Notes: generated by a model from the letters alone, not told the origin. 64,000 nucleotides of DNA from Candidatus Omnitrophota bacterium (GCA_035352955.1 DAOPYQ010000003.1:76901-140900), one strand, 5' to 3'. Counted from the stretch's first letter, positions 1,831 through 51,179 are shown. Translations and numbers: made by a program.

Positions 1831-1851
1831 GGGGTTTCTCCGATTTGGGAT

Positions 1852-9700: not shown

Positions 9701-11264
9701 CGATCGGCGGATTGGTCACCTGCGCAAAGAGCTGGCGGAAATAATTGTAAAGAAGCTGAGGTCGCTCGGAAAGGACGGCCAGCGCCGCGTCATTGCCCAT
9801 CGAGCCGACCGGTTCCTGGGCATTCTCGGCCATCGGCTGGAGGATCATCTTCTCGTCTTCAAGCGTGTAGCCAAAAATACGCTGGCGCAACGCGAGCGTC
9901 TTCTCGTCCACATCGACCGGGCCCGGGACCTGCAGCAGCCCCTTGAGCTCGATCCGGTTCTCCTCAAGCCACCGGCGGTACGGCTTACGGCGGGAGATGG
10001 CCGACTTGATCTCATTATCCTTGATGACGCGTTTGGCCGCCGTGTCGATCAGGAACATTTTTCCGGGGGCAAGCCGCCCTTTTTCAAGGACGTCCGGCGG
10101 ATTAATATCGAGCACACCGACCTCGGAAGCCATCACGACAAGACCGCTTTTGGTGATCACGTACCGTGCCGGCCGCAGCCCGTTCCGGTCCAGGATCGCG
10201 CCGACTTTCACGCCGTCGGTGAATGCGATCGCCGCAGGCCCGTCCCAAGGTTCCATGATCGCCGCATGGTATTCAAAGAAGGCGCGTTTCGCTTCGCTAA
10301 TGTGGTATTTGCTCCCGAACGCCTCCGGTACCATCATCATCATCGCATGCTCGAGCGAGCGGCCGCCAAGCGTCAAAAGTTCATAGACCGTATCAAATGT
10401 GGCGGAGTCGCTCAGCTGGGTATTGATGATCGGGAGAAGCTTTTTGATCTCCGGGCCGAAGAACTCGGAAGAGATCCGGACTTCGCGGGCCATCATCTTG
10501 TTGATGTTGCCGCGGAGCGTGTTGATCTCACCGTTGTGGGCCATGAAGCGGAACGGGTGCGCGAGAGGCCAGGACGGAAATGTGTTCGTGGAGTAACGTT
10601 GGTGGACCACCGCGAGAGCGCTGACAAAATCCTTTTCGGAAAGGTCGGGATAAAAAACTTCAAACTGCGGTGCGGCGAACATCCCCTTATAAACGATCTT
10701 GGAACAGGAAAGCGAAACAACGTAAAAATCCTCGATCGGCCATCCCGTCGCGAGCGCTTCGTTCTCAAAGACCTTGCGGAGCACATAAAGTTTCCGCTCC
10801 AAAGCGATCCCCTCAAGCCCGTCAAAAGCCACGAAAACTTGCCAGATGGAGGGCATGGATTCCCGGGCCATTTCGCCGAGACATTCCGGATGGACCGGCA
10901 CTTCCCGCCACCCGAGGAGCTTCCCGCCTTCGGCCGCGATCTTGGTTTCGATCATCTTCCGGGCCCGCGCGGAATCCTTCTCATTTTGCGGCAGAAACAG
11001 CATGCCGGCGCCGTAATGACCTTCCGCCGGCAGCTTGAATTTCAAAACCCGCGCGAAGAACTGGTGCGGGATCTGGAGGATCATCCCCGCGCCGTCGCCG
11101 GTCTTCTGATCGCCGCCGACCGCGCCACGATGGACGAGGTTGCAAAGGATCTGCACGCCGTCCCGGACGATCCGGTGGGAACGGGTCCCGTCGATCTTGG
11201 CGACGAACCCGACCCCGCAAGCGTCATGCTCCTGGCTGGGGTGATATAAACCGAATTCTTTCAT
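6744..11264 (-). CDS. gltB: Glutamate synthase large subunit (1506 aa)
   Basis: N-terminal Ntn amidotransferase Cys (MKEFGLYHPSQEHDACGVGF). The central, FMN-binding and C-terminal GXGXG domains are all present. Confidence 0.95.
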   Translation of the reverse strand: MKEFGLYHPSQEHDACGVGFVAKIDGTRSHRIVRDGVQILCNLVHRGAVGGDQKTGDGAGMILQIPHQFFARVLKFKLPAEGHYGAGMLFLPQNEKDSARARKMIETKIAAEGGKLLGWREVPVHPECLGEMARESMPSIWQVFVAFDGLEGIALERKLYVLRKVFENEALATGWPIEDFYVVSLSCSKIVYKGMFAAPQFEVFYPDLSEKDFVSALAVVHQRYSTNTFPSWPLAHPFRFMAHNGEINTLRGNINKMMAREVRISSEFFGPEIKKLLPIINTQLSDSATFDTVYELLTLGGRSLEHAMMMMVPEAFGSKYHISEAKRAFFEYHAAIMEPWDGPAAIAFTDGVKVGAILDRNGLRPARYVITKSGLVVMASEVGVLDINPPDVLEKGRLAPGKMFLIDTAAKRVIKDNEIKSAISRRKPYRRWLEENRIELKGLLQVPGPVDVDEKTLALRQRIFGYTLEDEKMILQPMAENAQEPVGSMGNDAALAVLSERPQLLYNYFRQLFAQVTNPPIDPYRENLVMSLMSFVGRQGNLLEERPEHCHQLKLSHPVLTNDDIDRLKTSNLSSFRVATVPMLFNPAAAGDLPKAVKGLCENVEKKIDEGHSLVILSDRGASADQAPIPALLAATAVHQHLIRVGKRYLGGLVLETGEAREVQHFACLVGYGVNAINPYLVFETLADLKRRGCLSGKITIETAIENYITAVKKGLLKVMSKMGISTIRSYRGAQIFEAVGLNDDFIATYFPGTASRINGIGIEAVERETVERFRSAFQVRETVADSLNSGGKYHYRLFSEKHLWSPMAVTLLQKATRENDYATFKKYSAEVNDISRNLCTLRGLFKFKPGASVPIDEVEPVESIVKRFVSSAMSFGSISKETHETIAIAMNRLGAASNSGEGGEDESRYLPLPNGDSAKSMIKQVASARFGVTIHYLANSKELQIKMAQGAKPGEGGQLPGHKVDAMIAKVRHSTPGVMLISPPPHHDIYSIEDLAQLIFDLKNANPEARVSVKLVSEVGVGTVAAGVAKGKADMVLISGHDGGTGASPISSIKYAGSPWEIGLAEAQQVLVMNKLRDRIRVQTDGQLKTGRDVVIAALLGAEEFGFGTSTVVTLGCIMMRKCHLNTCPVGVATQNPELRKRFAGKPESLMNFMRFVAQEVREWMAELGFRKFEDMVGHVERLEVNHAIEHYKTKGLDFSKVLAKAEVPEGGSIRCVSKQQHDLSLSLDPDLVKKAKAALEVKQPVVLQQKIRNCNRTVGATLSYEVAKRYGLAGLPEDTLHIKFEGSAGQSFGAFLAHGITFELEGDANDYFGKGLSGGRMIVYPPQSSTFRPQDNMITGNVNLFGATSGEVYIHGRAGERFCVRNSGAIAVVEGVGDHGCEYMTGGRVVILGETGVNFAAGMSGGIAYVLDENQLFDTRCNLEMVDLEPVVEAEDTTFLRTSIERHAKFTGSKFAKAVLASWDEMLPRFVKVMPMDYKKALEKLRERQTRGSETADMTEEVFI

Positions 11265-20273: not shown

Positions 20274-20452
20274 GACCCCTACGCTTCCGTTTGACCGGTC
20301 CAACCCCCTGGGTTAGACGACTCATTTCGCGCCATTGTAACCGATTTCCTATAAACCTTTCAACCTTTCACAACTTTTCCGTCTAAAACCCACTTCGGAG
20401 ACCCGGTCTCCGAGGCGGTGGGTACGCCGTTCGAAAAAAAACGCCCACGGAT

Positions 20453-20536
20453 AAAAAAAAAGAGGTTCGTGACCGAGTGGGGATCTTTGTGGCCACGAAC
20501 CTCTGCAGGTGAGTCGAGACCCGTAAGTCTCGCAAT
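20453..20536 (-). ncRNA. Candidate small RNA (about 84 nt) bounded by its own promoter and an intrinsic terminator
   Basis: Minus-strand -35 TTGACA (20571..20566), 17-nt spacer, and -10 TATAGT (20548..20543). The predicted transcript contains hairpin GAGAC-UUACGGG-GUCUC. It ends in a 10-bp stem GAGGTTCGTG/CACGAACCTC (20462..20503) followed by a T9 run (20453..20461). Confidence 0.35.
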
Positions 20537-20542
20537 GAAGAT

Positions 20543-20571
20543 ACTATACTCCCAAAATTCCGGACTGTCAA
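20543..20571 (-). promoter_or_regulatory. Near-consensus sigma70 promoter (TTGACA-N17-TATAGT) on the minus strand
   Basis: The hexamers and spacing were read directly from the sequence. Confidence 0.45.
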
Positions 20572-20654
20572 CGGCGCGGCCCGCCTTCTCACCCCATATT
20601 TTCATTGCAAAAACCCCAAGTAAAACCCGGCCTTGCTAGAATGACGGGCAGGAA

Positions 20655-20702
20655 AATAAAAAAAAAAAGAAGGGGCACGGTTTTCCCATATCCCCTTCTT
20701 TG
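20655..20702 (-). terminator. Intrinsic terminator of the giant gene
   Basis: Stem AGAAGGGG/CCCCTTCT (20668..20702) followed on the minus strand by a T run of 13 or more (A13 on plus, 20656..20668). It lies 30 nt after the giant ORF stop. Confidence 0.7.
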
Positions 20703-20733: not shown

Positions 20734-23700
20734 TTAAGCGGCCGACGCGATCCTCTGGAACGCTTCGAACAGCACCTGCATGTTCTGCAGCATGCCATCG
20801 ATACTCTTCTTCGTGATCGCCAAACCCGAGGCGCCTTCTTTTTCAAAACCCGGCATTTTCAACAAAAGATCGGCCATCTGCTCCGGCGTCATTCCGCTCA
20901 GATTCCAGATCTTCTGGGCGCCGCGCATAGCCACACGACCCACCGCAGCCTGCGAAACGGCCCCCTGAACATTGTCCGCTTCGCGAACCACCACCCCGGT
21001 GACAAAGCTAAGATTCAGAAAGCTCAGAGCATTCGCCGTACCGGTCAAGACATACCCTTTCCCTTTAACCAGGGCCAGGAACTCCGCTGCCTTGGAATTA
21101 AAATCGTGCGCTTGAGGATCAAAAACCCTGATATCCACCTGGCTGATGAACGCCGGCCGGTGGATCTTATTGGCCCACGCCGCAAAATCCAGGAGAACCT
21201 GACGCACCGCGGCAGCATCGATCCCCGAGCCCAGCACCATCGTATCAAACCGCATATTGGGGTTCAGAAGCAGATTAAACTTCAAGAGAGCCAGAAACAC
21301 CTTCGGGTCCTTGAAGCCTTCGATCACTTTCACCAGACGGCCCGCATCCCCGCTGATCGGCAGAGGCATATTCGGCACCGCATTCTGCAACTGCTCCGTC
21401 AGACCCGTAATGGTCCGCTCATCGACAAGCAATGAGATCGCGATGATCACCGGCGCGAGAGCTTCCATATTGTCGCGTGCAATCCCCTCCGTCAGCGCCA
21501 CCGCCACCTTAAGCGCCGGCGTTTTGAGCTCAGATTCCGGGATCCCCATCGCCTTCAGCGCTTCCCGTGTCGTCTCCATCGCCGTCCGGACCTGCTGCTT
21601 TGTAAAATTCTGTTCGACCCACTTGGCTACGGCAAGCTGCCTTTCGGAAACAGAAACGTCCCGGCGTTCGGCGCGCCCGGCTTCGGCGGCCTTGACCTTT
21701 GCAGCCTCCTCGAGACGCTCAGCCTTAGCCTTCGCCGCGAGAGCGAGAGCGATCGCCCGCATCTCATCAAAAGTCGCGCCCCGGTCGATCGCCGTCTTGA
21801 TCGCCACACGCCCGGCGCCCTCAATTTCAGCCAGCGACACCACCGCCGAAAGCAAGAGAACCTCCCGCTCATCCGACGTGGTCGCCTTGTCCGTAATAAT
21901 GTCGCGAAGCGAACGGAAACCAACGATTTCCCGGCCCTCGGCATCGCGGGCGGGAGCATCAAAACTATTAAAGAAATCCGTGTACTTCTGATATCGAGTG
22001 TCCGTCTGTCCCAGAATGAGCCCGGCCGCATCGGGCTTGGCATCCGCGGGAATCTTCAACACGTTCCAGAAGGCGTGACTGACCTGGTGCTTGGATTTTG
22101 CAGCCGCATTCCACACCTTGAAGTCCGCGATGTTATTGTTGTCCTCAAGCGCCAGACCCGGCACCTCGCGGCTCAGAATCTCAAGAGCTTTGTCCGAGGT
22201 CATTTCCAATTTCCCGGCGCGCGGCGACAAAGCCGTACGAACGGACGGCGCTTCGATCCTAGTGACAGCCTCCTCGCTCAGAACCCACTCCTGGGGAAAC
22301 GTATTGATCCCGGAAGTCAATTTTGTGAGATCCAGATCCTTCGGGATCATGACATTCTGCGGCGCGATCCCCCGCACCAGGTGGCGGATGTAAAGATTTC
22401 CTTCAAACGCGAACACCGCAACCACAAAATTCGCATCCAGAACAAACTGCGGATCGTTCGAGCTGACCCGGATCTCCACTTTTTTCTTGTCACCGCTCAA
22501 GCGCACATTGATACGGCTCGGAACACCTTCCAGGTCCGTCCTCGCGGCATTCACGGAAGTTTCGAGAGCCGTCGCCTCCAGTACTTCGGACTGGATCGCC
22601 AACGCCTGCTCCTTCGTGTATGTTTTGAGGCTCCGGATAAGCTCCTGAAGCTCGGTTTTCGTAGCACCTTCGGGGAACCCATACGTTTCAACGATCGTCT
22701 CCAACGTCCGCACAAGCTCCGGCCTTGAATTTTTCATGAAATACGCATTCTCAAACGCACGCACTCTCAAACCCAAATTGGTATCTTGCGGCGTGAACGA
22801 CCGCTGTCTTATAATGGAAGTCAAACGGAAAGCCTCGTCCAATTCGTTCAACGTCATCTCCCGCTTCTCTGCGCGGAGGGTGGAAAGGGCCAGCGACGAA
22901 AACAACCGGAAAGCCTCGTCGGCGCGGGCCTGATCCTCCGGAGCAACGGTAAAGAGTTTCGTTTTGATCGATCTCAGGGTCATGGAGGTATCATCCCCAT
23001 CGTCGTACTTTTGTTTCGCCATCTGGATGATCCCGACGAGGTCCATCGTCGTGATCCCCCGAGCCACACTCTCAGCTTCCGTCAAAGCGCTCAGGATCTG
23101 CGGAGGATCGATCACCCTTGAAAGATCCGAAGCCGTCAAGATGGGCTCTTCCTGTCCGACAACCGTTGGCGTCCTCTGAGCCGCAGTAGAAACCCTGATC
23201 GCTGAAGCCAGCGGCGGCACATTCGCCGCCATGGGAACATCCCGCTTCTCACTGTTGGCGCGAAGTTCCTTCGAAACAGCGGCCTTCGCGGCTTCCGAGA
23301 ATTTCCCGGTAAAAAACGGATTCAATTCCGCGAAAGTATCGCGACTGACCGAGGGCCTCCGGGCCTTCCGGTACAATTGCCACGCGCCATAGATCGCCTT
23401 AACCAACGATTCGTTGCCGGTGGCACTCTGGGTAGCCGCCCAAAACGCGGCATCGATCTCTCTGTCCGTTAAAGTCCCCTGTTGAACAACCTGCAGCGCT
23501 GTCCAATTCACCGTGGGGTCACCCTCCTCCGTCAGACCACGCTTCTCCGCGCGGATTTCTTTGCGCGACGCGGCATCGAGCATGGGACGAAGCCCGTCCA
23601 AATAGTGTTTCACGGCCGCATTGTAGGCCTTGGCTTTGAAAACGCTTGTATTGGCATAAAGATCCTTAACCGTTTTAAGAGCATCCCGGTCCAGCGGCGT

Positions 23701-26700
23701 GTCCACCGGTGTCGCGCTATCAAGTCCGACGCCTCCGTTCCGTCCTTTCCCCAAATCCGCGGCCTCGCTCCGCACCGCAGCGCCGCCGGCGTTAAACCGG
23801 TAGAAAGAGATCAGATCATCGAACAGCGCCATCCATTTTTCGGCACGCACAGCCTGCGAATTCTTGGGATCCAAGGCTCCCGCAAGAAGATCTTCCAAAA
23901 CAACGTGCTTGCGCGCGCGAACGATCTTGACAAGATCCTCAACCGTTTTCGGGGCTTCGACCAGCGCCCCAGCCGTCACAACGGTCCCCGTGGGAGTCAC
24001 GACCATCCCGGCCGTCGCAGCAACCGGAACCGACGTCATGAGCAGACCCGCAGCCGCCAGTTCCTGGATTCCGAGCCGCTTTTCCGCCCGGGTGATGTCC
24101 ACGATCTCGTTAGAACCAAGTAAAACCACCATCACACGGCCTGTTACCTGCCGGACCTCGGTACTGTTCGCGTTCAAGCCGGGCATGTGCTCGTCCCAAA
24201 GTTGACGCAAGATCGGAAAGACAATCCGCGAATTGACCGCGTAGAAATCAAGCCCTTTGAATGCGCCGACACCTTTACGCGCAACGATGGCATTCGCAAG
24301 CGCTTCGATCAGCCGGTCCTGCTCATCAGCGGCAGTAGCCAGACGCAATCTCGTCGCTAAATCAATGACCTCGGGCGCTGTGCTTAAGAATTCTATAGCT
24401 TCCAGATTTATTCCCTTCACCTCCGAGCGGGCGGGAGGACGGACCCCGAGCCGCTTTTCCGCCCGGGTGATGTCCGCGATCTCGTTAGAACCAAGTTTGA
24501 TCCGGTGAGTCACGGGACTCATGGCCCGGTTAATGACGACCCTGTAGGAAACTCCCGTCTTCAATTGTCCTTTGAGGAGCTCCTGCCAACGGAAAGTCCG
24601 ATCATCGAAAACAATCGTCGGCCCATCCGTCGTAACATGCACCGTCATCCCGATCCCCTTTGACGCATTCTTTTCCAAACGTCCCGCCAGGAAAGGAACA
24701 ACCTGGTCGGCGGAAAGTACTTCAGTCGCCAACTGGCGCGCGGCAACGACAACGTCGCGATTAGCCTCAACATGGGCAGTCTCGATCTTCCGCGCCAGAT
24801 CCTCTTTCTGAAGATCGTCGTAGAATTCGGCTCCCAACACGCCCTGCGAAATCTCCGCCGCGGAATAGCCCTTCGAATCGGACTGTTTGATCAGCTCGAT
24901 CTGCGCCGCATTCAAGCCGAAACTCTCAAGGCCCTCGGCCAACCTCGCCATAAGCTCGAAATTAACACCTCGCAGCGTCAGCGCAAGCTGCAACGTCTCA
25001 CGCTGGATCGCCAACGCGAGCCGCTGTCTCGCGCTTTTGATCCGGCCTTTAACAAGATCCCGGTCGATCGACAGGAAATCCTCGGCAAGCTCCGCGGTGG
25101 ACGCACGGTCCAACTCACTGAGCCTCTTAAACTGCGGAACCGCGCCCGTCCAGAGACGCAGCTGCAATTCGATACGTTCGGGGCTGGTTGTGAGCCACCG
25201 TTTAAGAGACTCACTCTGCTTCGGAAAAAGCGTCACAAAAGATTCGGCCAGATCCCTGAAAAGTCCGGTAAAGAGCATCGCCAAAGGTAAAAACAAAGCG
25301 ATCCCCCCCACCGCCAACGCGTACACCGGGATCCCGAGAGATGCATTAGCGAACGCCACCGCCGCCGCCACAGACACTCCGGCACTCAGGGCGAGACTCC
25401 CCCCGCGGATAACCTGCATAGTCTTTTCAGAAAGCGGTGACACCGAAGGCTCTTCGAGGGAAGATTGGTAGACCGCTGACCAGACGAACTTGAGGACTGC
25501 GCGGATCACGGTCGTAGAACCGGCCGCGATCAGCAAAAACACTGCGATAGTCGGCAGAACCGCCAGCGTACCGACTGCTGCTGCCAATGCCTGCAGAAAG
25601 AAAAACGCCGGGATCAACGCCAGCATCCAGCTGGCCGTTTCCAGGCTTCCACGAATCCCGGCTTCCCTGTCCTCACGGGCCTGTTCGGCTTGCATCGCTA
25701 CGGACATCGCCGGATTGAGCGCCGCGTTTGCGAGATTCACCTGACGGCGTTCCGCGACACGCGCGGCTTCTCCCGAGACGTAATAAGAGATCTGGTCATA
25801 AATAACCGCAAGCGACGGGATCGCAAGTGTCGCCGCGACGATCAGGGGCATGATAAAAATCCCGGTCACCCCGGCCAACACTCCGCTGATGAACGGATAC
25901 ACAAGACCGGCGATCGACGTCGCTCCGGCGGCGATATTCGCGCCCAGGGACGTTCCGATCGTCATAAAATCCTTTTTCTCGCCGCGCTTTTCCGCGCGGA
26001 TAGAAAAAGCAAAAGCATTGAAAGCTCTTTCAGCGACCGCAACGGTGATCCTGCCATCATCATCCACCTGCGGGGCGAAAAGAAGCTCCCACAAACGCGT
26101 CAGATCCGGATTAGCAGACATCTTCGGGATTTTCCCTGTCGCCCGCACCATGACCCCCTGACGTTGATGATAAGCCTCCCAGGCCGCCTGGAGGACATTC
26201 CAAACATTTTTGTCGCGTTCCACCGCCTGAGTAAGAACAGCCCTATGAAAAGCCGACTCGATCTCCACCGGGGTCGGCTTAAAATCCATCCCCATCGGAT
26301 CCTTGGCATACGCCTCAACAACCCGGGCAAAGGTTTCTTCGAGAATAGCCGCGTCCTTGATCCTTTTAGGGTCAAAACACTGCGTCTTAAGCGTCGCCAG
26401 GTCCATGTTGGCGGGCGTTCCCAGGCGCTTTTGTTCCTCTAGCCATTTGGAGTACTGTCCCATGGCTGAATCAAGAGCATCCTGGATCTTAGAGATCTTT
26501 ATTTTCTCAGGGGACTCCTCGGCCGCGTTCCGGAACGATGAGCTTTCAATTTCGGCGGCCAATTGGACCCTTTCAAAAGCCCTCCGGATCTGGAAAGATT
26601 CCAGATCCGCCCGCAGGTCCGCGCCGCGTCTTTCCGAGCGCAGACTGGACACGAACAGATCATAGGCCTCATCCACATCCGCCTGCGTGATCCGGGGTTC

Positions 26701-29700
26701 CGCGGTTTTGGGTTGACGGCCCGTCTGTTCGGTAAAAAACGACTTCATGCCGGACAACGTTAAGGCGGCTATTTTCTTGTAAGCTTCCGCTTGTCCCCGG
26801 GCAAGTGTCACCTCTTTGTTGTAAGCCTCCCAAGCCTGTTCGAGAACATTCAACGCGGAACCCGTCGCAAGGGCTGACGCCCGGTTAAAAGCGAACCACG
26901 CCCGAAGACCATTCACCGGCGTTTGCGGATTTACTCCGGTCGTTTCTTCGGCGCGTTTTTCCTGGCGCGACGCAGGCAGGCTCAATGGCTTGAGGATCCA
27001 AAGAACGCCGGCCACAGTGATGGTCGCGTTGGAAGTCGCTGTGGTGGCCCGGAGAATTATCGGCGTTTTGCGGTGACGAACCTCCATAAGAACGGCGTTA
27101 ACGCCCTGGAATTCCTCGTCGGTTAAAAACCGTCCGAGGCTCCCGCCTTTTTTACCATCCTCATATTGAACCACCGGATATTTCGCAAGGACCGCTTCAA
27201 GACGGCTCTGTTCCGCAACATTGTTGGTTTGCTGGGCCTGCGTAAGGGCTTCGGCGATCTGACCGATCTGGACCCGGACCTGGTCGGCGTCGACCTGGAG
27301 GAACTTCGCAAGATCCGCGACCTGCTTCTCGGTAAATACTATCTTCTGCTCCCCGGCAAGCTGCGTCGCCCGTTTTTCTTGGCGTCCGGCAAGTGTCACC
27401 GGGACGGAAAAAAGCGGCCGTATCTCGATCGCATTGTCCTTCATACTCACCGAATATGTTTTTTCCATCGTCTCGGGAATCGAGTCGGGAAGATCCATCT
27501 GAAGCTTGAACTGCGCCAATTCCCCGAGATTTAAACTGTTTTTCGTCAACATCTGATCGTCCCCGGAATAGTTCCCCTCAAAAATGGGGTCTTTTCCGAC
27601 GAGATCGCTGTCCCCGAATCCGAAGATCCGGAGGGCCACGGAAGTCCTGCGGCCTTTATTTCCACGCGCGGTCAGCGTCCAAAGAGTATTCACCACGCGC
27701 GGAATGTTCTCCAATTGCGTTCCGCGGAGCTCCTTGCGGCCAGCGGCATTGAGAAACCCATTCGTCCCGCCAATGATCCCGGCAAAAAGTGTCGGAGAAT
27801 TGAGAAAAGCATTTGTCATGATCGTGTAGCTCGGCGTTTGGGGAGTCGCCTGAAAACCCCGGCTCACGACCGCCCAACCATTCGTATCGGTCAACCGATT
27901 GTTCGCGACAATATAAAAAACCATGTTGGTAATGTCCGAGGAAGTCCCCATCGTCCAACCCGCGAGAACCCCAGTGGGGGTTTTCTCAAGAAAATTCATG
28001 CGAGGAGAAGCCTCAGTGGTCTCGCCTTTACCAAACGAAACAAGTTGCGTCCCCACAGGCACTTCATTTGTTGTAAAAGCACCCGCCACACTCGCTATCG
28101 AGAGAGCAAAGATCAACCCAAGTGCGCGCCACATAGCCGGCAACATTTTCAAATTAACGGGCCCGCGTTCTGACGGCGTTCCGCGGAGCTCCTTGCGGCC
28201 AGCGGCATTGAGAAACCCATTCGTCCCGCCAATGATCCCGGCAAAAAGTGTCGGAGAATTGAGAAAAGCATTTGTCATGATCGTGTAGCTCGGCGTTTGG
28301 GGAGTCGCCTGAAAACCCCGGCTCACGACCGCCCAACCATTCGTATCGGTCAACCGATTGTTCGCGACAATATAAAAAACCATGTTGGTAATGTCCGAGG
28401 AAGTCCCCATCGTCCAACCCGCGAGAACCCCAGTGGGGGTTTTCTCAAGAAAATTCATGCGAGGAGAAGCCTCAGTGGTCTCGCCTTTACCAAACGAAAC
28501 AAGTTGCGTCCCCACAGGCACTTCATTCGTCGTGAAAGCTCTCGCCGAGAGCACTGCCCCAAACGCGAGAGACACGGCCAGCAAAATCGATTGTAATCCC
28601 CGGGAAATATAGATCGGCGATTTCACAACGGGCGCCGTTTCCTCAACGCCGAGGCCAAGCGCTGTAAAAAAGTTCATACCCAACCTGACCCCCAGCGCGC
28701 TAAGCGACCTCATCAGAGTGACATCCGTAAGCACCGGCATCACGGCCAAAAAGTCCCGGATCTCCTGCGTCAAACCCGGTTCGAGCGGACGTGTCGCGAT
28801 AATGTTATTCAACTCGGCAGCGATCTTTTCTTCCTTCTGGGCCCGCGTCATGCGCTTTTCCGCGCGGGTGTACGTGACCAGGATCGCCGGATTCCCAAAC
28901 CTGGAAGGACGGATTTGCACAACAAACGGCCCCTTACCGTTAACAGCCGCTAAAGCGTTCGTCAGGCTTTCCGGACCGGAATAATTGACCGGTTGCTCCG
29001 CCGTATCGCCGCCCATGATGAGAAAAACTCTTGCGGAAGGATTCAGTTCGACAAGACGGGCCACGGCTTCACGGACCCCGTCCAGATTGTCCACCTGCTT
29101 GGGTCCACGATAGTCCCGCCCGTCGATCACAGCGTCCACCTCGCCCCTCTTTTCCGCGCGGGGAGTACCCACGTCCCGATCGTCTTGAATCACGCCACCC
29201 GCAACCGGACCCATTTTTAGTAGATTCATATCCCCCGTAGGAATTTCCGGGGATTTCATCCGCGTGGCGGGTCCGTCCGGAAAGATACTTTTGGAAAGAC
29301 TCGCTCTCTCGTTCCTGTTGCGGATCCAGCGGGCGGCCGAAACCGCTCCGGCGACAACCCCCACGCCAAGGATCACGGCGAGAGACACGCCGGTCGTAAG
29401 AAAAGCCAGTCCTGCCGCCGCCAACGCGATCGCGACGCCGCCGAGAACAATGCTGTCTTTCCAGGCAGGCTGAAAATAAACCATCGAAATTTTGGAGAAA
29501 TCGAACTTCCCCGACGTGAGATCAGGGATCTTCCACTCGGCCAGCATTCTCTTGGCCAGTGTTTCCCTTTCATTAATACTAAAAAGCCTGTCTTGTAGCA
29601 AATGGTGTGCGAAGTTCGTCCTCTCGTCCTGCAGCAGCCACGGACTTTGGGCGGTCTGGGGAAGCTCCCGCTTTTGGTCCTCAGACTTCCCGCCGTTAAT

Positions 29701-31788
29701 GGCAAGAAGCCGCATAAGCTCGTTAACTTTCTCGGGAGTGTAGATCGCGTTAAGCTTTTCGATCGCAGCCTGGCGGACCGCCGGATCCTCACTTCCCAGA
29801 TCCCTTAGCGATGCCGCGGCAATTTCATTTCCCTTGTCCAAGGTCGGCGCAAGCATCTCAGGCAAAATCTGCCCCATTTGAACGGCAATCGTGTCGTCGA
29901 CTATGGCAGTCGCACCGTCGATCCCGACCTGGTCGGGACTGACCTTGCGAAGAACGCGGTACGTTTCACCGCCCTCTTTCGCTTGGACGAGCCGCAACTC
30001 ATTGCGACGAGCCATGGGCCCGTCATTCACGTCAGGAAGGATCCCGGCAGGTGTTGGGACTTCTGCCACTTTGGTTGCGGTCGCAAGTAATTTGCCCAGG
30101 ACCCCCAGTTCCCCAACACCCTGCGCATCCTGGCCGACAGGTCCTTTGAGCGGCTGAGCGAGAAGGGTTTTTTCGACAAAAGACAGCTCGAAATTCTGCT
30201 TTCCGTCCTGGAGCATGGTGGAGCGGTAAAGTCTCTCGTCGGATTTTTCACTAAGGCGCGGGGTGACGATCCCATAGCTCACGGAATTTTCGCGGAAAAG
30301 GTCGCTCATGCCGTCCGTGTGAAAACCGCCCGTGATAAGGACGGCCTTCGTGATCTTGCGCTGGCTCATGGCGTTCTGCATTTCTTTATAGAAGACGCCT
30401 TCACGCTGACGGGCGAAACCGTAGAACTCAAGGCCGGTCTTGAACAGCTCGGTCATCTTTCCGCTAAAAGCCTTGGGCATGACCTCCTGGTCTTTGCGGA
30501 CCGAGGTATCCCCCGCGGCAATGATCGCGGTCTTCAGGCGTTCGACAAGGTTCGTCACGGTCACACGATCCCCGGCATCGACCAGCTCGCGCCACTGCGT
30601 GCGGCTCAACTCCAGATGCAAAAGCTTACGCAAAAGCTCACCGTCCCTGTAAAGGGCAAGGAGGGCCTTCTGCTGAGGCTCCTTGGCTAAGGCATCGAGC
30701 ATCTGCGTAAAAAGGTATTCAATCTCCGCGAACAGGACCTTGGGGTCAAGTTCGGCCCGGAGCGTCACGTAACCGGCAAAAAGGCTGAACGCAGGATAAT
30801 CGCTGAATTTGAATCCTTTGGGGGCGACTTCAGCGGCAAGGCGCTCGAGCACGTCGCGCGGAGAAACTTCCTGCGCGGATTTTCCGACGGAGATGCTCCC
30901 TTCATTGAAACTTTCAAGCGCGGCAAGAAGTTCTTTCGAGACGCCCTTCGTTTTGAGCATTTTGAGAAGCGCGGCCTTTTCTTCGAGTCCCTTGGCTTTG
31001 TCCAGGGACTTTTCCATTTCCTGGATGGCCAGAAGGCGCGTGATCTGCGGCCAGCCGGCCTGGGCGAAAAGGCTGTTAAGATCGACATCGAGGATTCTCC
31101 TGGACTGTTTGGCGAGCTGCTGAACGAAAGGCATGAATTCGCGGCGGCCCAGCTCGAAACGTTTCCAGTCGGCGATCAGGGCGCGCGTCTCGGGCGTAAA
31201 GACCTTGGAGGCGGCCCGGTCGAGCTTCTGATCAAATCCCTGAAAGAAACGGTTGACGTCGGGTTCGGCGCCGAACACTTTCTTCAGCGCTTCGTAGTTG
31301 GCCTTGTAAAGAGGCGCCTGCTCGATGCCGAGTGCTTCGACGTTCTTCTCGTTCTCCATCAGGAACAGTTCGGAACCGGTCAGCTCGCCCTGCTTGGCGA
31401 GTTCGTCGCACAGTTTAAGATTGCGTTCTTCATCGGGAAAAAGGCGGAGATAATCCGCATCGAGTTTGGTCGAGGCCCCTTCCACAAAAATGGTCGTGAA
31501 TCCGTATTTCTTGTTCATGTGCTCCAGAAGTTGCTTGATCTTCATCTGGGCTTGATAATTGGCGTGCGCGTTCTGGATATGAAGGATGAATTGCGGTGCA
31601 GTAGATGCGGGCGCTTCGTAAAGAGCATCGACGGTGCCGAGATCCACGGGAACATCAATGCTTAAATAAGTGGGCAGTTCTCTCTTGGACGCAATTTCGA
31701 TATTAGCACCGGGGGCCCCCCATGCGATCTGTGTCGTGAGAAAGCAAACCACGGTCGCCGCCGCGATCACCTTCAGGCCCTTTTTCAT
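20734..31788 (-). CDS. Giant 3684-aa secreted/membrane protein of unknown function, with an N-terminal TraB/GumN/Tiki-like domain
   Basis: Uninterrupted 11,055-nt ORF with a signal peptide MKKGLKVIAAATVVCFLTTQIAWGAPG. The N-terminal roughly 530 aa carry TraB/GumN-family motifs: HIQNAH, FVEGAS, and GGFHTDG...YGIV. A central cluster of 6 or more TM helices maps to about 25250..26000. The sequence also has a recurring RAEKR motif and an internal perfect tandem duplication. Confidence 0.8.
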   Translation of the reverse strand: MKKGLKVIAAATVVCFLTTQIAWGAPGANIEIASKRELPTYLSIDVPVDLGTVDALYEAPASTAPQFILHIQNAHANYQAQMKIKQLLEHMNKKYGFTTIFVEGASTKLDADYLRLFPDEERNLKLCDELAKQGELTGSELFLMENEKNVEALGIEQAPLYKANYEALKKVFGAEPDVNRFFQGFDQKLDRAASKVFTPETRALIADWKRFELGRREFMPFVQQLAKQSRRILDVDLNSLFAQAGWPQITRLLAIQEMEKSLDKAKGLEEKAALLKMLKTKGVSKELLAALESFNEGSISVGKSAQEVSPRDVLERLAAEVAPKGFKFSDYPAFSLFAGYVTLRAELDPKVLFAEIEYLFTQMLDALAKEPQQKALLALYRDGELLRKLLHLELSRTQWRELVDAGDRVTVTNLVERLKTAIIAAGDTSVRKDQEVMPKAFSGKMTELFKTGLEFYGFARQREGVFYKEMQNAMSQRKITKAVLITGGFHTDGMSDLFRENSVSYGIVTPRLSEKSDERLYRSTMLQDGKQNFELSFVEKTLLAQPLKGPVGQDAQGVGELGVLGKLLATATKVAEVPTPAGILPDVNDGPMARRNELRLVQAKEGGETYRVLRKVSPDQVGIDGATAIVDDTIAVQMGQILPEMLAPTLDKGNEIAAASLRDLGSEDPAVRQAAIEKLNAIYTPEKVNELMRLLAINGGKSEDQKRELPQTAQSPWLLQDERTNFAHHLLQDRLFSINERETLAKRMLAEWKIPDLTSGKFDFSKISMVYFQPAWKDSIVLGGVAIALAAAGLAFLTTGVSLAVILGVGVVAGAVSAARWIRNRNERASLSKSIFPDGPATRMKSPEIPTGDMNLLKMGPVAGGVIQDDRDVGTPRAEKRGEVDAVIDGRDYRGPKQVDNLDGVREAVARLVELNPSARVFLIMGGDTAEQPVNYSGPESLTNALAAVNGKGPFVVQIRPSRFGNPAILVTYTRAEKRMTRAQKEEKIAAELNNIIATRPLEPGLTQEIRDFLAVMPVLTDVTLMRSLSALGVRLGMNFFTALGLGVEETAPVVKSPIYISRGLQSILLAVSLAFGAVLSARAFTTNEVPVGTQLVSFGKGETTEASPRMNFLEKTPTGVLAGWTMGTSSDITNMVFYIVANNRLTDTNGWAVVSRGFQATPQTPSYTIMTNAFLNSPTLFAGIIGGTNGFLNAAGRKELRGTPSERGPVNLKMLPAMWRALGLIFALSIASVAGAFTTNEVPVGTQLVSFGKGETTEASPRMNFLEKTPTGVLAGWTMGTSSDITNMVFYIVANNRLTDTNGWAVVSRGFQATPQTPSYTIMTNAFLNSPTLFAGIIGGTNGFLNAAGRKELRGTQLENIPRVVNTLWTLTARGNKGRRTSVALRIFGFGDSDLVGKDPIFEGNYSGDDQMLTKNSLNLGELAQFKLQMDLPDSIPETMEKTYSVSMKDNAIEIRPLFSVPVTLAGRQEKRATQLAGEQKIVFTEKQVADLAKFLQVDADQVRVQIGQIAEALTQAQQTNNVAEQSRLEAVLAKYPVVQYEDGKKGGSLGRFLTDEEFQGVNAVLMEVRHRKTPIILRATTATSNATITVAGVLWILKPLSLPASRQEKRAEETTGVNPQTPVNGLRAWFAFNRASALATGSALNVLEQAWEAYNKEVTLARGQAEAYKKIAALTLSGMKSFFTEQTGRQPKTAEPRITQADVDEAYDLFVSSLRSERRGADLRADLESFQIRRAFERVQLAAEIESSSFRNAAEESPEKIKISKIQDALDSAMGQYSKWLEEQKRLGTPANMDLATLKTQCFDPKRIKDAAILEETFARVVEAYAKDPMGMDFKPTPVEIESAFHRAVLTQAVERDKNVWNVLQAAWEAYHQRQGVMVRATGKIPKMSANPDLTRLWELLFAPQVDDDGRITVAVAERAFNAFAFSIRAEKRGEKKDFMTIGTSLGANIAAGATSIAGLVYPFISGVLAGVTGIFIMPLIVAATLAIPSLAVIYDQISYYVSGEAARVAERRQVNLANAALNPAMSVAMQAEQAREDREAGIRGSLETASWMLALIPAFFFLQALAAAVGTLAVLPTIAVFLLIAAGSTTVIRAVLKFVWSAVYQSSLEEPSVSPLSEKTMQVIRGGSLALSAGVSVAAAVAFANASLGIPVYALAVGGIALFLPLAMLFTGLFRDLAESFVTLFPKQSESLKRWLTTSPERIELQLRLWTGAVPQFKRLSELDRASTAELAEDFLSIDRDLVKGRIKSARQRLALAIQRETLQLALTLRGVNFELMARLAEGLESFGLNAAQIELIKQSDSKGYSAAEISQGVLGAEFYDDLQKEDLARKIETAHVEANRDVVVAARQLATEVLSADQVVPFLAGRLEKNASKGIGMTVHVTTDGPTIVFDDRTFRWQELLKGQLKTGVSYRVVINRAMSPVTHRIKLGSNEIADITRAEKRLGVRPPARSEVKGINLEAIEFLSTAPEVIDLATRLRLATAADEQDRLIEALANAIVARKGVGAFKGLDFYAVNSRIVFPILRQLWDEHMPGLNANSTEVRQVTGRVMVVLLGSNEIVDITRAEKRLGIQELAAAGLLMTSVPVAATAGMVVTPTGTVVTAGALVEAPKTVEDLVKIVRARKHVVLEDLLAGALDPKNSQAVRAEKWMALFDDLISFYRFNAGGAAVRSEAADLGKGRNGGVGLDSATPVDTPLDRDALKTVKDLYANTSVFKAKAYNAAVKHYLDGLRPMLDAASRKEIRAEKRGLTEEGDPTVNWTALQVVQQGTLTDREIDAAFWAATQSATGNESLVKAIYGAWQLYRKARRPSVSRDTFAELNPFFTGKFSEAAKAAVSKELRANSEKRDVPMAANVPPLASAIRVSTAAQRTPTVVGQEEPILTASDLSRVIDPPQILSALTEAESVARGITTMDLVGIIQMAKQKYDDGDDTSMTLRSIKTKLFTVAPEDQARADEAFRLFSSLALSTLRAEKREMTLNELDEAFRLTSIIRQRSFTPQDTNLGLRVRAFENAYFMKNSRPELVRTLETIVETYGFPEGATKTELQELIRSLKTYTKEQALAIQSEVLEATALETSVNAARTDLEGVPSRINVRLSGDKKKVEIRVSSNDPQFVLDANFVVAVFAFEGNLYIRHLVRGIAPQNVMIPKDLDLTKLTSGINTFPQEWVLSEEAVTRIEAPSVRTALSPRAGKLEMTSDKALEILSREVPGLALEDNNNIADFKVWNAAAKSKHQVSHAFWNVLKIPADAKPDAAGLILGQTDTRYQKYTDFFNSFDAPARDAEGREIVGFRSLRDIITDKATTSDEREVLLLSAVVSLAEIEGAGRVAIKTAIDRGATFDEMRAIALALAAKAKAERLEEAAKVKAAEAGRAERRDVSVSERQLAVAKWVEQNFTKQQVRTAMETTREALKAMGIPESELKTPALKVAVALTEGIARDNMEALAPVIIAISLLVDERTITGLTEQLQNAVPNMPLPISGDAGRLVKVIEGFKDPKVFLALLKFNLLLNPNMRFDTMVLGSGIDAAAVRQVLLDFAAWANKIHRPAFISQVDIRVFDPQAHDFNSKAAEFLALVKGKGYVLTGTANALSFLNLSFVTGVVVREADNVQGAVSQAAVGRVAMRGAQKIWNLSGMTPEQMADLLLKMPGFEKEGASGLAITKKSIDGMLQNMQVLFEAFQRIASAA
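27717..28527. repeat. Perfect in-frame tandem duplication inside the giant gene (period 459 bp = 153 codons)
   Basis: 27717..28068 is 100% identical to 28176..28527 (352 bp). Both copies encode AFTTNEVPVGTQLVSFGKGETTEASPRMNFLEK...NAAGRKELRGT. Each copy is preceded by a diverged hydrophobic segment. Confidence 0.85.
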
Positions 31789-31960
31789 GTTTTGTATCCT
31801 CCTCGGATCAGATTATGAACCCTTTTTAAAAGATTAAAAAACATAAAGAAAATGTAACATATCACGGCCAGTTTGCAAGCCTAAAAATCCCCTCAAGAGG
31901 ACTTTTTTAAGATTTATTGTAAGTCTAACCGAATCAACCATTTGCACAGTTTTTCTCCGC

Positions 31961-32689
31961 TTAAATGGTTACGAATTCAACGCCAAAACCAAGTTGCTCC
32001 TTGCGAACTTCCTCTCGACGGATCTTCCCGGCAACCTGGTACTCCTCCGGAAAATTGGCACTTGGGAAGATATGAATGTCGACCTTGAGTCCCGCAAGGG
32101 GCCCAAGAGCCGAGATCCGATGCGCCGCACCAAGGTCCAAATACTCCGCAAACAGCCCTCCTTCGCTGATATTGGTCGCGATGGCGCGCGTTTGGAGAAC
32201 CTCCCCCTTCGGGCTTGTGATCGTGAGCTTCAGCGGGATCGCCACATGCATACGATGACTGCGGCGCTTTTCGAGCTGGTGCCCCGGCGAATCCTGCGGG
32301 TTTTTTACCCCCGGCGCCATGATGCGCTTTTCCGCGTCCTTGTCAAAAAGGAACGGCCCGAAACTTTCCGCCACTTCCTTTTCGTCCGCGCACACGTCGA
32401 CCTTCCCGGTAAAGCAATTATCCTCGAGATAATGGGCCATCTCCGCGGAGGCCCCATAGATCACACTGTGCTTGGGGCGGATGCAGACCGTCAGCAGCCT
32501 TCGCAGACCGATCGCGTCAAGCGCTCCGGCCTCCTGGAAATTCAAAATGATCCTCTGCAGACGGTGGCGCCGAATGTTCTTCTGGATCTTCCAGGCAACC
32601 TCCTGCACGGATTCAAAGGTCGGCTCTCCTTTCAAGTCAAAGACAGCGACCCCTCCGATCTCTCTGGTGGAATAGTGGAATTTGCTCAT
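31961..32689 (-). CDS. STAS (anti-sigma-antagonist-like) + PilZ (c-di-GMP-binding) fusion protein
   Basis: N-terminal STAS-like region VAVFDLKGE...ILNFQEAGALDAIGLRRLL. The SpoIIAA phospho-serine position holds Ala, so it is not phosphorylatable. C-terminal PilZ motifs RRSHR (RxxxR) and NISEGG (D/NxSxxG). Confidence 0.7.
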   Translation of the reverse strand: MSKFHYSTREIGGVAVFDLKGEPTFESVQEVAWKIQKNIRRHRLQRIILNFQEAGALDAIGLRRLLTVCIRPKHSVIYGASAEMAHYLEDNCFTGKVDVCADEKEVAESFGPFLFDKDAEKRIMAPGVKNPQDSPGHQLEKRRSHRMHVAIPLKLTITSPKGEVLQTRAIATNISEGGLFAEYLDLGAAHRISALGPLAGLKVDIHIFPSANFPEEYQVAGKIRREEVRKEQLGFGVEFVTI

Positions 32690-43713: not shown

Positions 43714-44516
43714 TGGATCTCTTCCATCGAAGCGAGCAGGATATCCTGGTCGAGCACCTTCTGTTTTCGGACGAATCCGAGCAACAGCGCGCGATCGCAA
43801 AGAAGATTGATCAGACGCGGAACACCTTTCGAAAAGTCGTTGATCACCTGGTACGCCTCCGGCGTCACCATGACTCCTTCCGCCCCCGATCGGGAAAGGC
43901 GGAAATCCACGTAGGCCTTTACATCGCCGGAGTCGAGCGGCTGAAGGTCATATTTGATCACGACGCGCTGATAGATCTGACGGAGGTCATAACGGCGAAG
44001 GTTGGCCTTGAGCTCCGGCTGCCCCACCAGAACGATCTGGAGCAACTTGCCGTGCTTCGTCTCGAGATTCGACAAAAGGCGTATCTGCTCGAGCTGGCGC
44101 GGCTTCAGGTTCTGTGCCTCATCGATCACGAGCACCGCGTTCCCCTGCTGCAGGCTCAGATCGATCAAGAATGCATCGAGTTTTTTTACAATATCAAGGC
44201 GGGTCTTTTTCTCGGCTTCAAGCCCGAAATCCTCAACGATCGCCTGCAAAAGCTGGATATCGCTGAAGTAAGGGCTCAGGATCAGCGAGGTCCGGACGGT
44301 CTTGGGAAGGCGTTCCATAAGCGCTTTGCAAAGCGTGGTTTTCCCCGTCCCGACTTCCCCGGTGATCAAAAGAAGTCCCTTACGTTCTTCGATCCCGTAC
44401 ATCAGGGACCCGAGGGCTTCCTGATGGGAACGGCTTTCAAAAAAGAGATCGGCGTCGGTCGTGATGTGAAAAGGCTGGGTCTTGAATCCGTAAAACTCGC
44501 AAAGGGCCGTGGTCAT
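43710..44516 (-). CDS. ExeA/GspA/MshM-like AAA ATPase
   Basis: Walker A GEVGTGKTTL, Walker B VLVIDEAQNL. ATGA overlap with pilQ. Confidence 0.8.
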   Translation of the reverse strand: MTTALCEFYGFKTQPFHITTDADLFFESRSHQEALGSLMYGIEERKGLLLITGEVGTGKTTLCKALMERLPKTVRTSLILSPYFSDIQLLQAIVEDFGLEAEKKTRLDIVKKLDAFLIDLSLQQGNAVLVIDEAQNLKPRQLEQIRLLSNLETKHGKLLQIVLVGQPELKANLRRYDLRQIYQRVVIKYDLQPLDSGDVKAYVDFRLSRSGAEGVMVTPEAYQVINDFSKGVPRLINLLCDRALLLGFVRKQKVLDQDILLASMEEIQ

Positions 44517-46069: not shown

Positions 46070-46074
46070 TCTGC

Positions 46075-46554
46075 CTATTTCAGATGAAGTTCAAATTCCG
46101 ATGTTTTATCTTTAAGTTTCACACTATCGGGCTGTATCTTGACTACCTGAAACCCGTTCAGGGTGTCCCCTTCTTTCAGAAAAGTCTGATTAATGACCGC
46201 CGTGGGGATCTTGTCACCCCACAGGATGCCTTCCAGAACCAGCATGCTCCGGGGATCTCTCGGGCCGATCTGTCCCCCCACGAACGGATCACGCTCAACG
46301 GAAAGCGCGTCCGTCACTCCGTTAAATCTCCCAAAAAAACTATCGTCCAAAACCGGCTTTCTCTTGACCAGAGAAGGAACAGAAACGGTCCCACCCTGAA
46401 ATGAGACGGATGCGGCAACGTTCGGAGCCGGGAGCGGCAAAACCCGCTTCGCAGCGTTGATCTTTTTGACAAGAGAACCCGTCGCCGACACCAAGAGAAG
46501 TGCCGTGACGACCACGACCCCGAGTTCAATGATCTCTTTTTTTCTCATGGTCAC
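46075..46554 (-). CDS. pilP: PilP-like pilus assembly protein
   Basis: Size, N-terminal membrane/lipo-anchor, and its position between pilO and pilQ. Confidence 0.6.
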   Translation of the reverse strand: MTMRKKEIIELGVVVVTALLLVSATGSLVKKINAAKRVLPLPAPNVAASVSFQGGTVSVPSLVKRKPVLDDSFFGRFNGVTDALSVERDPFVGGQIGPRDPRSMLVLEGILWGDKIPTAVINQTFLKEGDTLNGFQVVKIQPDSVKLKDKTSEFELHLK

Positions 46555-48702: not shown

Positions 48703-48719
48703 GAACCGCCTTCGTTCGC

Positions 48720-49274: not shown

Positions 49275-49642
49275 GGCGCGTACGTCACATCTTTGGCGAT
49301 GGAACCGTAAAGCGTTGCCAGGACCGCCGAAGTCCCCGAACGCTTAGCGGTCAGCACGATGTCTTTCCTTTCCGCACCGTTGCTTCCTGTCACCGTCGTC
49401 ACCGTCCAGTTAACGATCATGGAGTTGATCGTGGAACTTCCCGTCGCCACGGAGGCATACGCCGTGTTATTCAGCCGCTCCATTTCACTGCGCGCCGCGT
49501 TGCCGGCAATGGTCAAATCTCCGGACGATATCGTCCCCTGAACCTGCTGGCCGATCATATACCCGACCGGGATCGCGATAAGCGTCAGGATGATCATCGC
49601 CATGATCAATTCAATCAGGGTGACTCCTCGTCGGCAATTCAT
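49271..49642 (-). CDS. Type IV minor pilin / pseudopilin
   Basis: Prepilin N-terminus RRGVTLIELIMAMIIL. ATGA overlap with the downstream gene. Confidence 0.8.
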   Translation of the reverse strand: MNCRRGVTLIELIMAMIILTLIAIPVGYMIGQQVQGTISSGDLTIAGNAARSEMERLNNTAYASVATGSSTINSMIVNWTVTTVTGSNGAERKDIVLTAKRSGTSAVLATLYGSIAKDVTYAP

Positions 49643-49657
49643 TTTTCGCTTCCCACC

Positions 49658-51131: not shown

Positions 51132-51179
51132 TTTCGTTCTCCTTTCGCTGAACTGCTGCACTCAATTAACAACTTTAGA

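Follow-up and report, generated by a model that had tools for sequence, protein, structure and literature searches.

What does an open reading frame (ORF) of 11 kb on a bacterial chromosome encode: one giant protein, or many? This question is raised by a 64,000-nt stretch of DNA from a Candidatus Omnitrophota bacterium (GCA_035352955.1, DAOPYQ010000003.1:76901–140900; hereafter the window, whose positions are used throughout), in which an ORF of 11,055 nt occupies positions 20734–31788 of the minus strand, in DNA of 56 % GC. It starts at an ATG, 9 nt downstream of the Shine-Dalgarno sequence GAGGAGG (31798–31804, as read from the sequence), and encodes 3684 amino acids (aa); all features of this gene given below lie on the minus strand. 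The original prediction had correctly delimited this ORF and taken its product to be one 3684-aa envelope protein. The latter is probably wrong: a pentapeptide repeated throughout the protein family, together with internal Sec- and Tat (twin-arginine translocation)-type signals that follow this pentapeptide in relatives, argues for a polyprotein of about 15 modules. We give a somewhat better than even chance to the reading that cytoplasmic cleavage of this polyprotein would release proteins which are then exported independently of one another.

The feature on which this reading turns, and which the original prediction had overlooked, is a pentapeptide of the form R-[A/S/Q/K]-E-x-R that recurs in the body of the protein, between an N-terminal head and a conserved C-terminal domain. 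The pattern R[ASQK]ExR occurs 14 times where shuffled sequences lead one to expect 0.28, and RAEKR alone seven times as against 0.0085 expected; with degenerate copies counted in, there are 14–16 from residue 877 onward. The copies comprise RAEKR (seven), RQEKR and RKELR (two each), and RSERR, RAERR, and RKEIR (one each), plus the degenerate RAEKW and NSEKR, and no second ORF of the window contains more than one R[ASQK]ExR.

The gene belongs to an undescribed family, so far seen in Omnitrophota only. Back-translated patterns of the head returned at least 388 head relatives in GTDB species-representative genomes, often several per genome; all 79 loci that we examined (L001–L079) are from Omnitrophota, with family proteins of ~920 to >3900 aa. 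Nearly all of these proteins repeat R-S-E-x-R in the body, and only L012 (residue 425) and L049 (residue 447) carry it inside the head. In the DNA examined, the motif is enriched in and nearly restricted to family genes, lies at domain boundaries, and stands before export signals. Its R[SA]ExR form reaches 1.97 copies per 1000 aa in family bodies and ~0.03 per 1000 aa in flanking ORFs (213,043 aa), the latter figure being our estimate, which leaves out family genes missed by our filter, their fragments, and unresolved large motif-rich ORFs adjoining them. With R, E, and R fixed by the search pattern, the second position is S in 82 % and A in 18 % of the copies, the fourth position varies, and the flanks are nearly without information. 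Where related bodies can be aligned, the R, E, and R of the motif are kept in 56–63 % of cases compared to a flank identity of 25 %, while the variable residue is kept in 14 %.

This variable residue is specific to the genome. RSESR prevails in L007 and L011 (from one metagenome-assembled genome), RSELR in L047, L077, and L079, RSEMR in L032 and L045, and RAEKR in the window; sharing of the residue amounts to 0.34 within and 0.15 between genomes, a value that none of 2000 permutations reached. Heads within one genome may be only 30–45 % identical to the window head. A motif variant shared genome-wide despite such divergent heads is explained more economically by a single trans-acting reader per genome than by each head reading its own body.

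At the nucleotide level, conservation is confined to the 15 nt of the motif, and all six arginine codons as well as both serine codon families are in use, which argues that selection acts on the protein. On both grounds we ruled out a DNA-level repeat as the origin of the motif. Across the window ORF and L001–L079, its synonymous codons are biased (consensus CGC TCC GAG NNG AGG/CGG): the final arginine codon is AGG in 34 % of the copies against a background of 13 %, the variable codon has G as its third base in 65 %, and methionine takes the variable position in 13 % compared to 2 % in the background. Such a bias could point to a function of the motif in the nucleic acid, and to that extent it counts against a polyprotein. 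One may then picture the ORF as a stop-less operon, in which the modules arise through internal initiation or through mRNA cleavage at the motif-coding sequence and the motif is mainly a nucleic-acid signal. The synonymous bias and the frequent methionine would fit this picture, as would junctions such as RSE-M-R-AIARRSFLA, which would provide an ideal N-terminus if the ATG were used. However, methionine is hardly more frequent after motifs (2.4 %) than elsewhere (2.1 %), ATG codons with a full Shine-Dalgarno sequence make up 0.5 % in both sets, the conserved stretch ends at 15 nt and employs every arginine and serine codon family, the window genome has AAG or AAA—not a start codon—at the variable position, and ribosomes arriving from upstream would read through anyway. 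We regard a stop-less operon as very improbable, and the lack of any enrichment of methionine or of Shine-Dalgarno-preceded ATG codons after motifs led us to reject internal translation initiation as a general mechanism.

Where in the protein does the motif lie? A short site recurs at the boundaries of otherwise independent units. In 23 % of cases, a homology block shared between family bodies begins no more than 5 aa from a motif, compared to 4 % for random positions; this statistic is dominated by the repeated C-terminal domain, which itself begins at or just past a motif in 12 of 15 proteins. Inside the window protein, paralogous domains (modules M6/M7 and M8/M9) are right-aligned to the motif. 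The first two copies, both RAEKR, occupy residues 877–881 (29146–29160) and 975–979 (28852–28866). A signal-peptide-like or transmembrane (TM) segment follows at residues 1064–1086 (28531–28599; ending in LLAVSLAFGAVLSARA/F, the slash marking the end of the segment here and below), as called by hydropathy. It leads into the first copy of an exact 352-nt repeat (28176–28527; residues 1088–1205), which ends RKELR-GT, with the RKELR at residues 1198–1202 (28183–28197). Thirteen residues past this motif, a second signal-peptide-like segment (residues 1216–1240; 28069–28143, hydropathy; ending in MWRALGLIFALSIASVAGA/F) opens onto the second repeat copy (27717–28068; residues 1241–1358), which again ends RKELR-GT (RKELR at residues 1351–1355; 27724–27738). 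The stretch RKELR-GTPSERGPVNLKMLPAMWRALGLIFALSIASVAGA/F thus places a signal-peptide-like segment directly after a motif of the window protein itself. The repeat stops three codons past RKELR, each copy encodes a beta-rich domain, and the two copies are preceded by different signal-peptide-like segments; gene conversion among modules would seem to account for this better than a simple tandem duplication.

Farther along the body, RQEKR is found at residues 1469–1473 (27370–27384) and 1608–1612 (26953–26967), RSERR at 1717–1721 (26626–26640), and RAEKR at 1931–1935 (25984–25998). Twenty residues past the last of these begins a cluster of about six TM helices (residues 1956–2181; 25246–25923), which the original prediction had noted at 25250–26000 and which hydropathy resolves into hydrophobic segments at residues 1956–1998, 2051–2102, and 2129–2181; beyond the cluster, a weak hydrophobic segment lies at 2579–2597. 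The cluster forms the start of a module spanning residues 1936–2446. This module ends with the RAEKR of residues 2442–2446 (24451–24465), which, like that of residues 2567–2571 (24076–24090), lies within a copy of a 56-nt direct repeat (D2). There follow the degenerate RAEKW (residues 2648–2652; 23833–23847), overlapping RKEIR and RAEKR copies (2742–2750; 23539–23565), the degenerate NSEKR (2845–2849; 23242–23256), and a further RAEKR (2972–2976; 22861–22875). RAERR (residues 3372–3376; 21661–21675) directly precedes the C-terminal domain (residues 3377–3684; 20737–21660).

Units of this family also bear targeting signals of their own, which heuristic detection assigned to Sec-like, lipobox, and Tat types. 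In 27 % of cases, a hydrophobic segment begins no more than 15 residues past a motif, compared to 6 % for random positions. Signal-peptide-like segments, for which we required a hydrophobic core with an AxA-like end, come after 14 % of the motifs and 4.6 % of control positions; examples from relatives are RSELR-KIIPVVIAAALTASAVLA/QE and RSELR-SNWWQKIGLALMGLALSLNVARA/QG. The sharpest instance is that of Tat-type signals, recognized by RRxF[LFVIM] together with a hydrophobic core. All seven that lie downstream of any body motif begin 3–19 residues past an RxExR: two in L015 (RSEMR-AIA-RRSFLA and RSEMR-GIN-RRGFLA) and one each in L014 (RSEVR-ETN-RRGFLK), L016 (RSELR...T-RRTFFA), L030 (RSEMR...S-RRSFLK...ASWAA), L045 (RSEVR...S-RRDFV...ALTGC, a Tat lipoprotein signal), and L077 (RVEAR-QVG-RREFMQ). 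The truncated L078 contains one more Tat-like signal, the eighth, with no motif upstream of it. As ~5 % of body positions are equally close to a motif, we estimate the chance of seven out of seven at near 1e-9. The L030 segment also passes the curated NCBIfam Tat-signal model TIGR01409 (19.4 bits; cut-off 16.7). Tat signals work N-terminally, on proteins that have folded in the cytoplasm, and one located at residue ~3040 makes sense only as a new N-terminus.

Could the chain nonetheless stay in one piece? It might be an uncut, giant multi-pass envelope protein, in which R[SA]ExR has a structural or an interaction role, capping linkers, for instance, or serving as docking site or as topogenic positive patch. 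No protease for the motif is known, and most motifs lie away from hydrophobic segments, both of which suit such a protein. Yet a context-free pentapeptide that is kept across unalignable bodies behaves as a recognition site, and internal Tat signals would be left without a role. Moreover, tandem homologous or identical modules each open with a TM segment (at residues 1064 and 1216 of the window protein, 1383 and 1522 of L001, and 1438 and 2199 of L002), so that duplicate modules would adopt opposite topologies if the chain were uncut, and identical modules would end up on opposite sides of the membrane. Counted from head to tail by crude hydropathy, the number of TM helices came out even about nine times and odd six times (our count). 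We consider an uncut protein distinctly unlikely.

Under the polyprotein reading, R[SA]ExR would be cut in or beside the motif, in the cytoplasm and possibly during translation. A cut after the last arginine or one between the glutamate and the variable residue would either way yield a plausible signal-peptide N-terminus. Each module—these are fast-evolving units of ~80–510 aa—would be freed as a separate polypeptide. The head module would cross the membrane by its own Sec signal and stay anchored through residues 778–822, leaving a cytoplasmic tail that ends in RAEKR; modules led by a Sec, lipoprotein, or Tat signal or by a TM anchor would be exported or inserted singly, and those devoid of a signal would remain cytoplasmic. 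In this manner, one promoter and one ribosome-binding site could give rise to an equimolar set of envelope proteins. We infer the cleavage itself, its scissile bond, and its compartment from sequence features only.

Which protein might do the cutting? The obvious suspect is the head, and its nature had been anticipated in part. As originally described, the protein opens with a signal peptide, whose Sec-type form can be read from the sequence and its hydropathy (residues 1–25, 31714–31788; MKKGLKVIAAATVVCFLTTQIAWG/AP, with n-region MKKGLK, an h-region, and the end AWG/A) and whose layout is likewise seen in homologues. The predicted motif blocks are also in place: HIQNAH at residues 70–75 (31564–31581), FVEGAS at 101–106 (31471–31488), and GGFHTDG at 487–493 followed by YGIV at 505–508. 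In an alignment of 63 heads that are 30–76 % identical to the window head, ten residues are invariant (H70, Q72, H75, E103, G104, E156, R251, G487, G488, and H490), with H70, Q72, and H75 of the first block present in 63 of 63 heads, E103 and G104 in the second, and H490 in GGFHT (residues 487–491; 30316–30330), a second GxxH motif. An AlphaFold2 model of residues 1–560 built from 17 sequences is confident (pLDDT 79.6, pTM 0.73) and displays a central parallel beta-sheet flanked by helices, as in solved members of the superfamily, with the invariant residues at the ends of beta-strands. The head domain (residues 42–545; 30154–31665) hence combines an alpha/beta core like that of TIKI, TraB, ChaN, and erythromycin esterase with a helical insertion of ~320 residues (158–476).

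Its assignment to the TraB/GumN/Tiki/erythromycin-esterase superfamily stands at the level of fold and of catalytic-type residues; a significant TraB or Tiki profile match, whose absence the original prediction had itself named as a refutation, did not appear. Pfam TraB (PF01963) and Erythro_esterase (PF05139), the two families named in the original prediction, as well as Cofac_haem_bdg (PF04187) and the NCBIfam equivalents returned nothing at E ≤ 1, a 17-head profile found nothing at E ≤ 10 among all PDB sequences, and Foldseek of the head model against the PDB gave insignificant helical matches only, a comparison that in our opinion is dominated by the helical insertion. The spacing of H75 and E103 is 28 residues, as it is in the catalytic His-Glu pairs of Bcr135 (H85/E113) and RRSP (H3902/E3930; PMC6254334). 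Like TIKI, TraB-PrgY, GumN, and the EreA/ChaN-like erythromycin esterases, the head has a parallel beta-sheet core, a His-Glu pair with the 28-residue spacing of Bcr135 and RRSP, and a second GxxH (GGFH); in contrast to them, its first motif is HIQ[ND]AH and not GxxH, its core is split by the helical insertion, and a long modular body is joined to it. N or D takes the place of the first glutamate of the 2His/2Glu set. Taken alone, the head is a new member of a known superfamily, and as modeled it represents a new, profile-invisible branch of the TIKI/erythromycin-esterase superfamily, probably with the predicted activity of a hydrolase. The signal peptide and the acidic region that follows it predict its export. 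A hydrophobic stretch of 41–45 aa (residues 778–822; 29323–29457, hydropathy) precedes RWIRNRNER; going by the positive-inside rule, it probably anchors the head module in the membrane and leaves a tail in the cytoplasm. The head may act on exported modules or on other envelope substrates.

The strongest competitor of the polyprotein reading puts this head to work: a single inserted chain whose exported TIKI-like head cuts R[SA]ExR in the periplasm, in cis or in trans, to shed or mature surface domains. Tiki and RRSP show that the superfamily does include true endopeptidases (PMC6254334), the head has invariant catalytic-type residues, and across the ~0.8 Mb of Omnitrophota DNA examined, motif-rich ORFs proved to be family genes or else large neighbors of these; in addition, a naive topology of the uncut chain places most motifs of the window protein in the periplasm. 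However, Tat- and Sec-type signals right after motifs require that motifs be cytoplasmic and create new N-termini, an uncut chain would give duplicate modules opposite topologies, and the motif variant shared despite divergent heads is simpler with one reader per genome. We deem such periplasmic self-processing unlikely. As the head is predicted to be exported, it is unlikely to be the motif protease though it co-occurs with the motif, and the protease for cytoplasmic cleavage is probably a trans-acting factor. The C-terminal domain was considered for this role and rejected: it has only one conserved serine and no catalytic set, and the shortest family members join it to the exported head without an intervening motif.

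Several observations weigh against the polyprotein. The only conserved hydrolase-like domain, the head, bears a Sec signal peptide that would take it out of the cytoplasm, whereas cleavage would take place inside, and no further candidate for a motif protease was found in the window. All signal and TM calls are crude hydropathy heuristics, and even by these an export signal follows only ~10–14 % of the motifs. The window protein lacks a Tat-type signal; what it contributes itself is the enrichment of the motif, its domain boundaries, and a single clear segment resembling a signal peptide. The motif turns over, ~40 % of copies being missing at the homologous position in relatives. L039, L055, and L059 (~1050 aa) consist of a signal peptide, the head, and a C-terminal region, with no R[SA]ExR at all. 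Finally, a probe with an approximate E. coli TatA sequence found no match in the ~1 Mb of sequence examined, which is uninformative.

How, then, is such a protein put together? Its two ends are conserved, and what lies between them is not. As first noted, the body cannot be assigned: Pfam, NCBIfam, PADLOC, and PHROGs yielded no family match anywhere in the 3684 residues. An exhaustive HMMER search with residues 882–1935 against 1.84 billion representative proteins retrieved only the protein itself, and BLAST of residues ~700–3300 against 64 other family proteins gave a single weak match of 80 aa (residues 3070–3149). The C-terminal domain, delimited by homology to the C-termini of L011 and L018, comprises ~310 residues clearly common to these three proteins; it is distantly related to that of 12 further loci (hhalign probability 87.5 %, E 3.6e-6) and also present in short members of ~1000 aa. 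It had no match in Pfam or the PDB, neither the single sequence nor an alignment of 15 sequences retrieved any homologue, and a single-sequence AlphaFold2 model was unusable (pLDDT 41.6), its low-confidence secondary structure being mixed alpha/beta. Among L039, L055, and L059, the model of this domain finds it in L059 only; these three may represent an ancestral two-domain form. The ancestral architecture seems to have been signal peptide, head, and C-terminal domain, with the variable modules inserted between the latter two. Of the 31 complete family proteins, 27 end in [ST][AS]x[AS]A-COOH, the window protein in IASAA-COOH. This tail resembles the end of the ssrA tag and could be a degron or recognition tail.

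A body devoid of homologues and the perfect 352-nt repeat within the ORF might also be the marks of an assembly chimera or a pseudogene-like fusion. However, an 11-kb open frame at 56 % GC cannot be due to chance, and dozens of genomes have, in the same syntenic place, the same order of head, body, and tail with conserved ends. In addition, the identical 3684-aa protein is recorded on four contigs of public collections, one of them an ENA contig of 204,942 bp, which makes a one-off chimeric assembly unlikely. Taken together, we consider an artifact of this kind extremely improbable.

The syntenic position is shared by 21 loci with the order PheS-PheT-MgsA-STAS/PilZ-[gene]-small ORF-DUF1844-LPG synthase-AroQ-AccB-AccC, across which the flanking proteins are mostly 70–87 % and the heads 53–76 % identical. 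A second conserved locus harbors paralogues in the order GCS2-GcvT-GcvP1-GcvP2-UvrD-[family gene] (L039, L047, L061, L064, L028, L042, and L058). L028 and L064 contain two family genes in tandem, and in L060 a family gene comes right after a truncated motif-rich ORF. In the window, a gene whose STAS and PilZ domains each exceed the Pfam cut-off does lie immediately upstream as had been reported (31961–32689, minus strand). The further question whether homologues are always paired with such a gene has a negative answer: a STAS-PilZ neighbor occurs in 21 of 79 loci, all of them at the PheST-MgsA locus, and is missing next to the paralogues at the GcvTP-UvrD locus. The pairing is a matter of synteny, not a rule of the family.

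How does the proposed polyprotein compare with known systems? Flavivirus and pestivirus polyproteins encode many proteins in one ORF, with short basic cytoplasmic cleavage sites and internal signal sequences. The window family is alike in its single ORF, its short basic-rich sites, and its internal signals; it differs from the polyproteins of these enveloped RNA viruses in being a bacterial chromosomal gene at a housekeeping locus that has no recognizable viral-type protease module and in its Tat- and lipoprotein-type signals and hypervariable modules. In the gingipain/HagA proteins of Porphyromonas gingivalis, a secreted hydrolase head and further domains are split at Arg/Lys sites into non-identical products. 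Gingipains belong to the C25 cysteine proteases, leave the cell through the type IX system, and are processed extracellularly, whereas the window family has a different fold, no C-terminal domain of the type IX secretion system (T9SS), and processing that would seemingly precede export. Repeated short linkers mark the cut points within one ORF in Euglena plastid precursors and in fungal precursors processed by Kex2, whose site the EKR variant of the window resembles. Those precursors are repeats of the same or a similar mature protein, cut after import or in the secretory pathway, while the units here are mutually unrelated and bear export signals of their own.

MARTX toxins are likewise large modular proteins cut between modules, and one of their effectors, RRSP, is a TIKI-fold endopeptidase (PMC6254334). 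They rely on an inositol-phosphate-activated cysteine protease that cuts after leucine in host cells, and they contain RTX-type repeats; neither this protease domain nor RTX repeats had a Pfam or NCBIfam match in the window protein, whose flanking genes are housekeeping ones in place of a type I secretion context. Within the same phylum, Archaeovorin- and Dockerin-type giants (West-Roberts et al. 2023; Nielsen and Lui 2026) share a signal peptide as well as TM helices with the window family. The giants comprise 10–147 thousand aa, and their Pfam domains include C39 peptidase, SecA-like, and dockerin. Members of the window family, by contrast, measure 0.9 to >3.9 thousand aa, are dark to Pfam, and offer an explicit candidate site; in the window protein, C39, SecA-like, dockerin, and carbohydrate-binding domains were all missing. 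For giant Omnitrophota proteins, cleavage into several products has been suspected, with no sites known (bioRxiv 10.1101/2023.11.21.568195). Term searches of that preprint and of the 2026 survey of long proteins in the phylum (bioRxiv 10.64898/2026.06.07.730766) hit no mention of a motif, nor did the survey contain any of our terms for cleavage. Bacterial polyproteins that have internal Tat signals, and polyproteins of Omnitrophota, were looked for in the literature, and nothing relevant came up.

We rate the proposed arrangement, known from viruses and undescribed for bacterial chromosomes, as categorically new in kind for the latter. If borne out, this would be the first bacterial chromosomal polyprotein by which a single ORF delivers many envelope proteins that are unrelated and separately exported, and it would imply an undescribed site-specific cytoplasmic protease. 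More broadly, but with rather less assurance than for the window ORF itself, we can envisage "protein-level operons" in Omnitrophota: single ORFs of unrelated Sec, lipoprotein, Tat, and membrane pre-proteins, released by a dedicated, genome-specific cytoplasmic endopeptidase that reads R-[S/A]-E-x-R. On balance we would not yet bet on this generalization; such operons may partly explain the giant genes of the phylum. For the question whether long Omnitrophota proteins persist as single chains or are cut, which the literature leaves undecided for want of known cleavage points, R[SA]ExR provides a concrete five-residue candidate site and predicts termini there. The motif also supplies a rule for dividing such ORFs into units for structure prediction and annotation. 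Worth studying in itself is the extreme divergence of the bodies, which have become unrecognizable although the ends around them are conserved and the housekeeping locus is syntenic.

The gene ends as had been foreseen, at an intrinsic terminator (20655–20702, minus strand) formed by a GC-rich hairpin (AGAAGGGG...CCCCTTCT) and a run of 13 T. The 96-nt stretch that includes this strong hairpin has a folding energy of −32.8 kcal/mol; with its overlong loop, the hairpin escaped a consensus terminator scanner. The giant gene and the STAS-PilZ gene look separately transcribed. Apart from the latter, the neighbors are housekeeping genes: PheS, PheT, MgsA, a lysyl-phosphatidylglycerol-synthase (LPG synthase)-like membrane protein, AroQ, AccB, and AccC. 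A role in anti-phage defense or a phage origin found no backing, in that PADLOC and PHROGs gave no match and head relatives were absent from the plasmids and phages searched. The same goes for an autotransporter or a T9SS cargo, as no C-terminal beta-barrel or sorting domain was matched in Pfam, NCBIfam, or the PDB.

Elsewhere in the window, a sigma-54 gene (2884–4335, plus strand) and the genes of both glutamate synthase subunits, large and small (5317–11264, minus strand), form ordinary housekeeping context. A type IV pilus/type II secretion-like cluster spans 44513–54064 on the minus strand and includes a secretin (44513–46069), a PilM-like protein (47131–48702), and a T2SSE ATPase (52394–54064). 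A 505-aa ORF at 61411–62928 (minus strand) has no Pfam match. Between the terminator of the giant gene and the DUF1844 gene (20300–20650, minus strand), a near-consensus promoter, TTGACA-17-TATAGT (20571–20543), is followed by ~150 nt of structured sequence with two hairpins, each having a T-run (~20520–20455 and 20413–20395). This region is weakly conserved in six syntenic loci and has no Rfam match; it could encode a small RNA or an 81-aa ORF (20360–20605).

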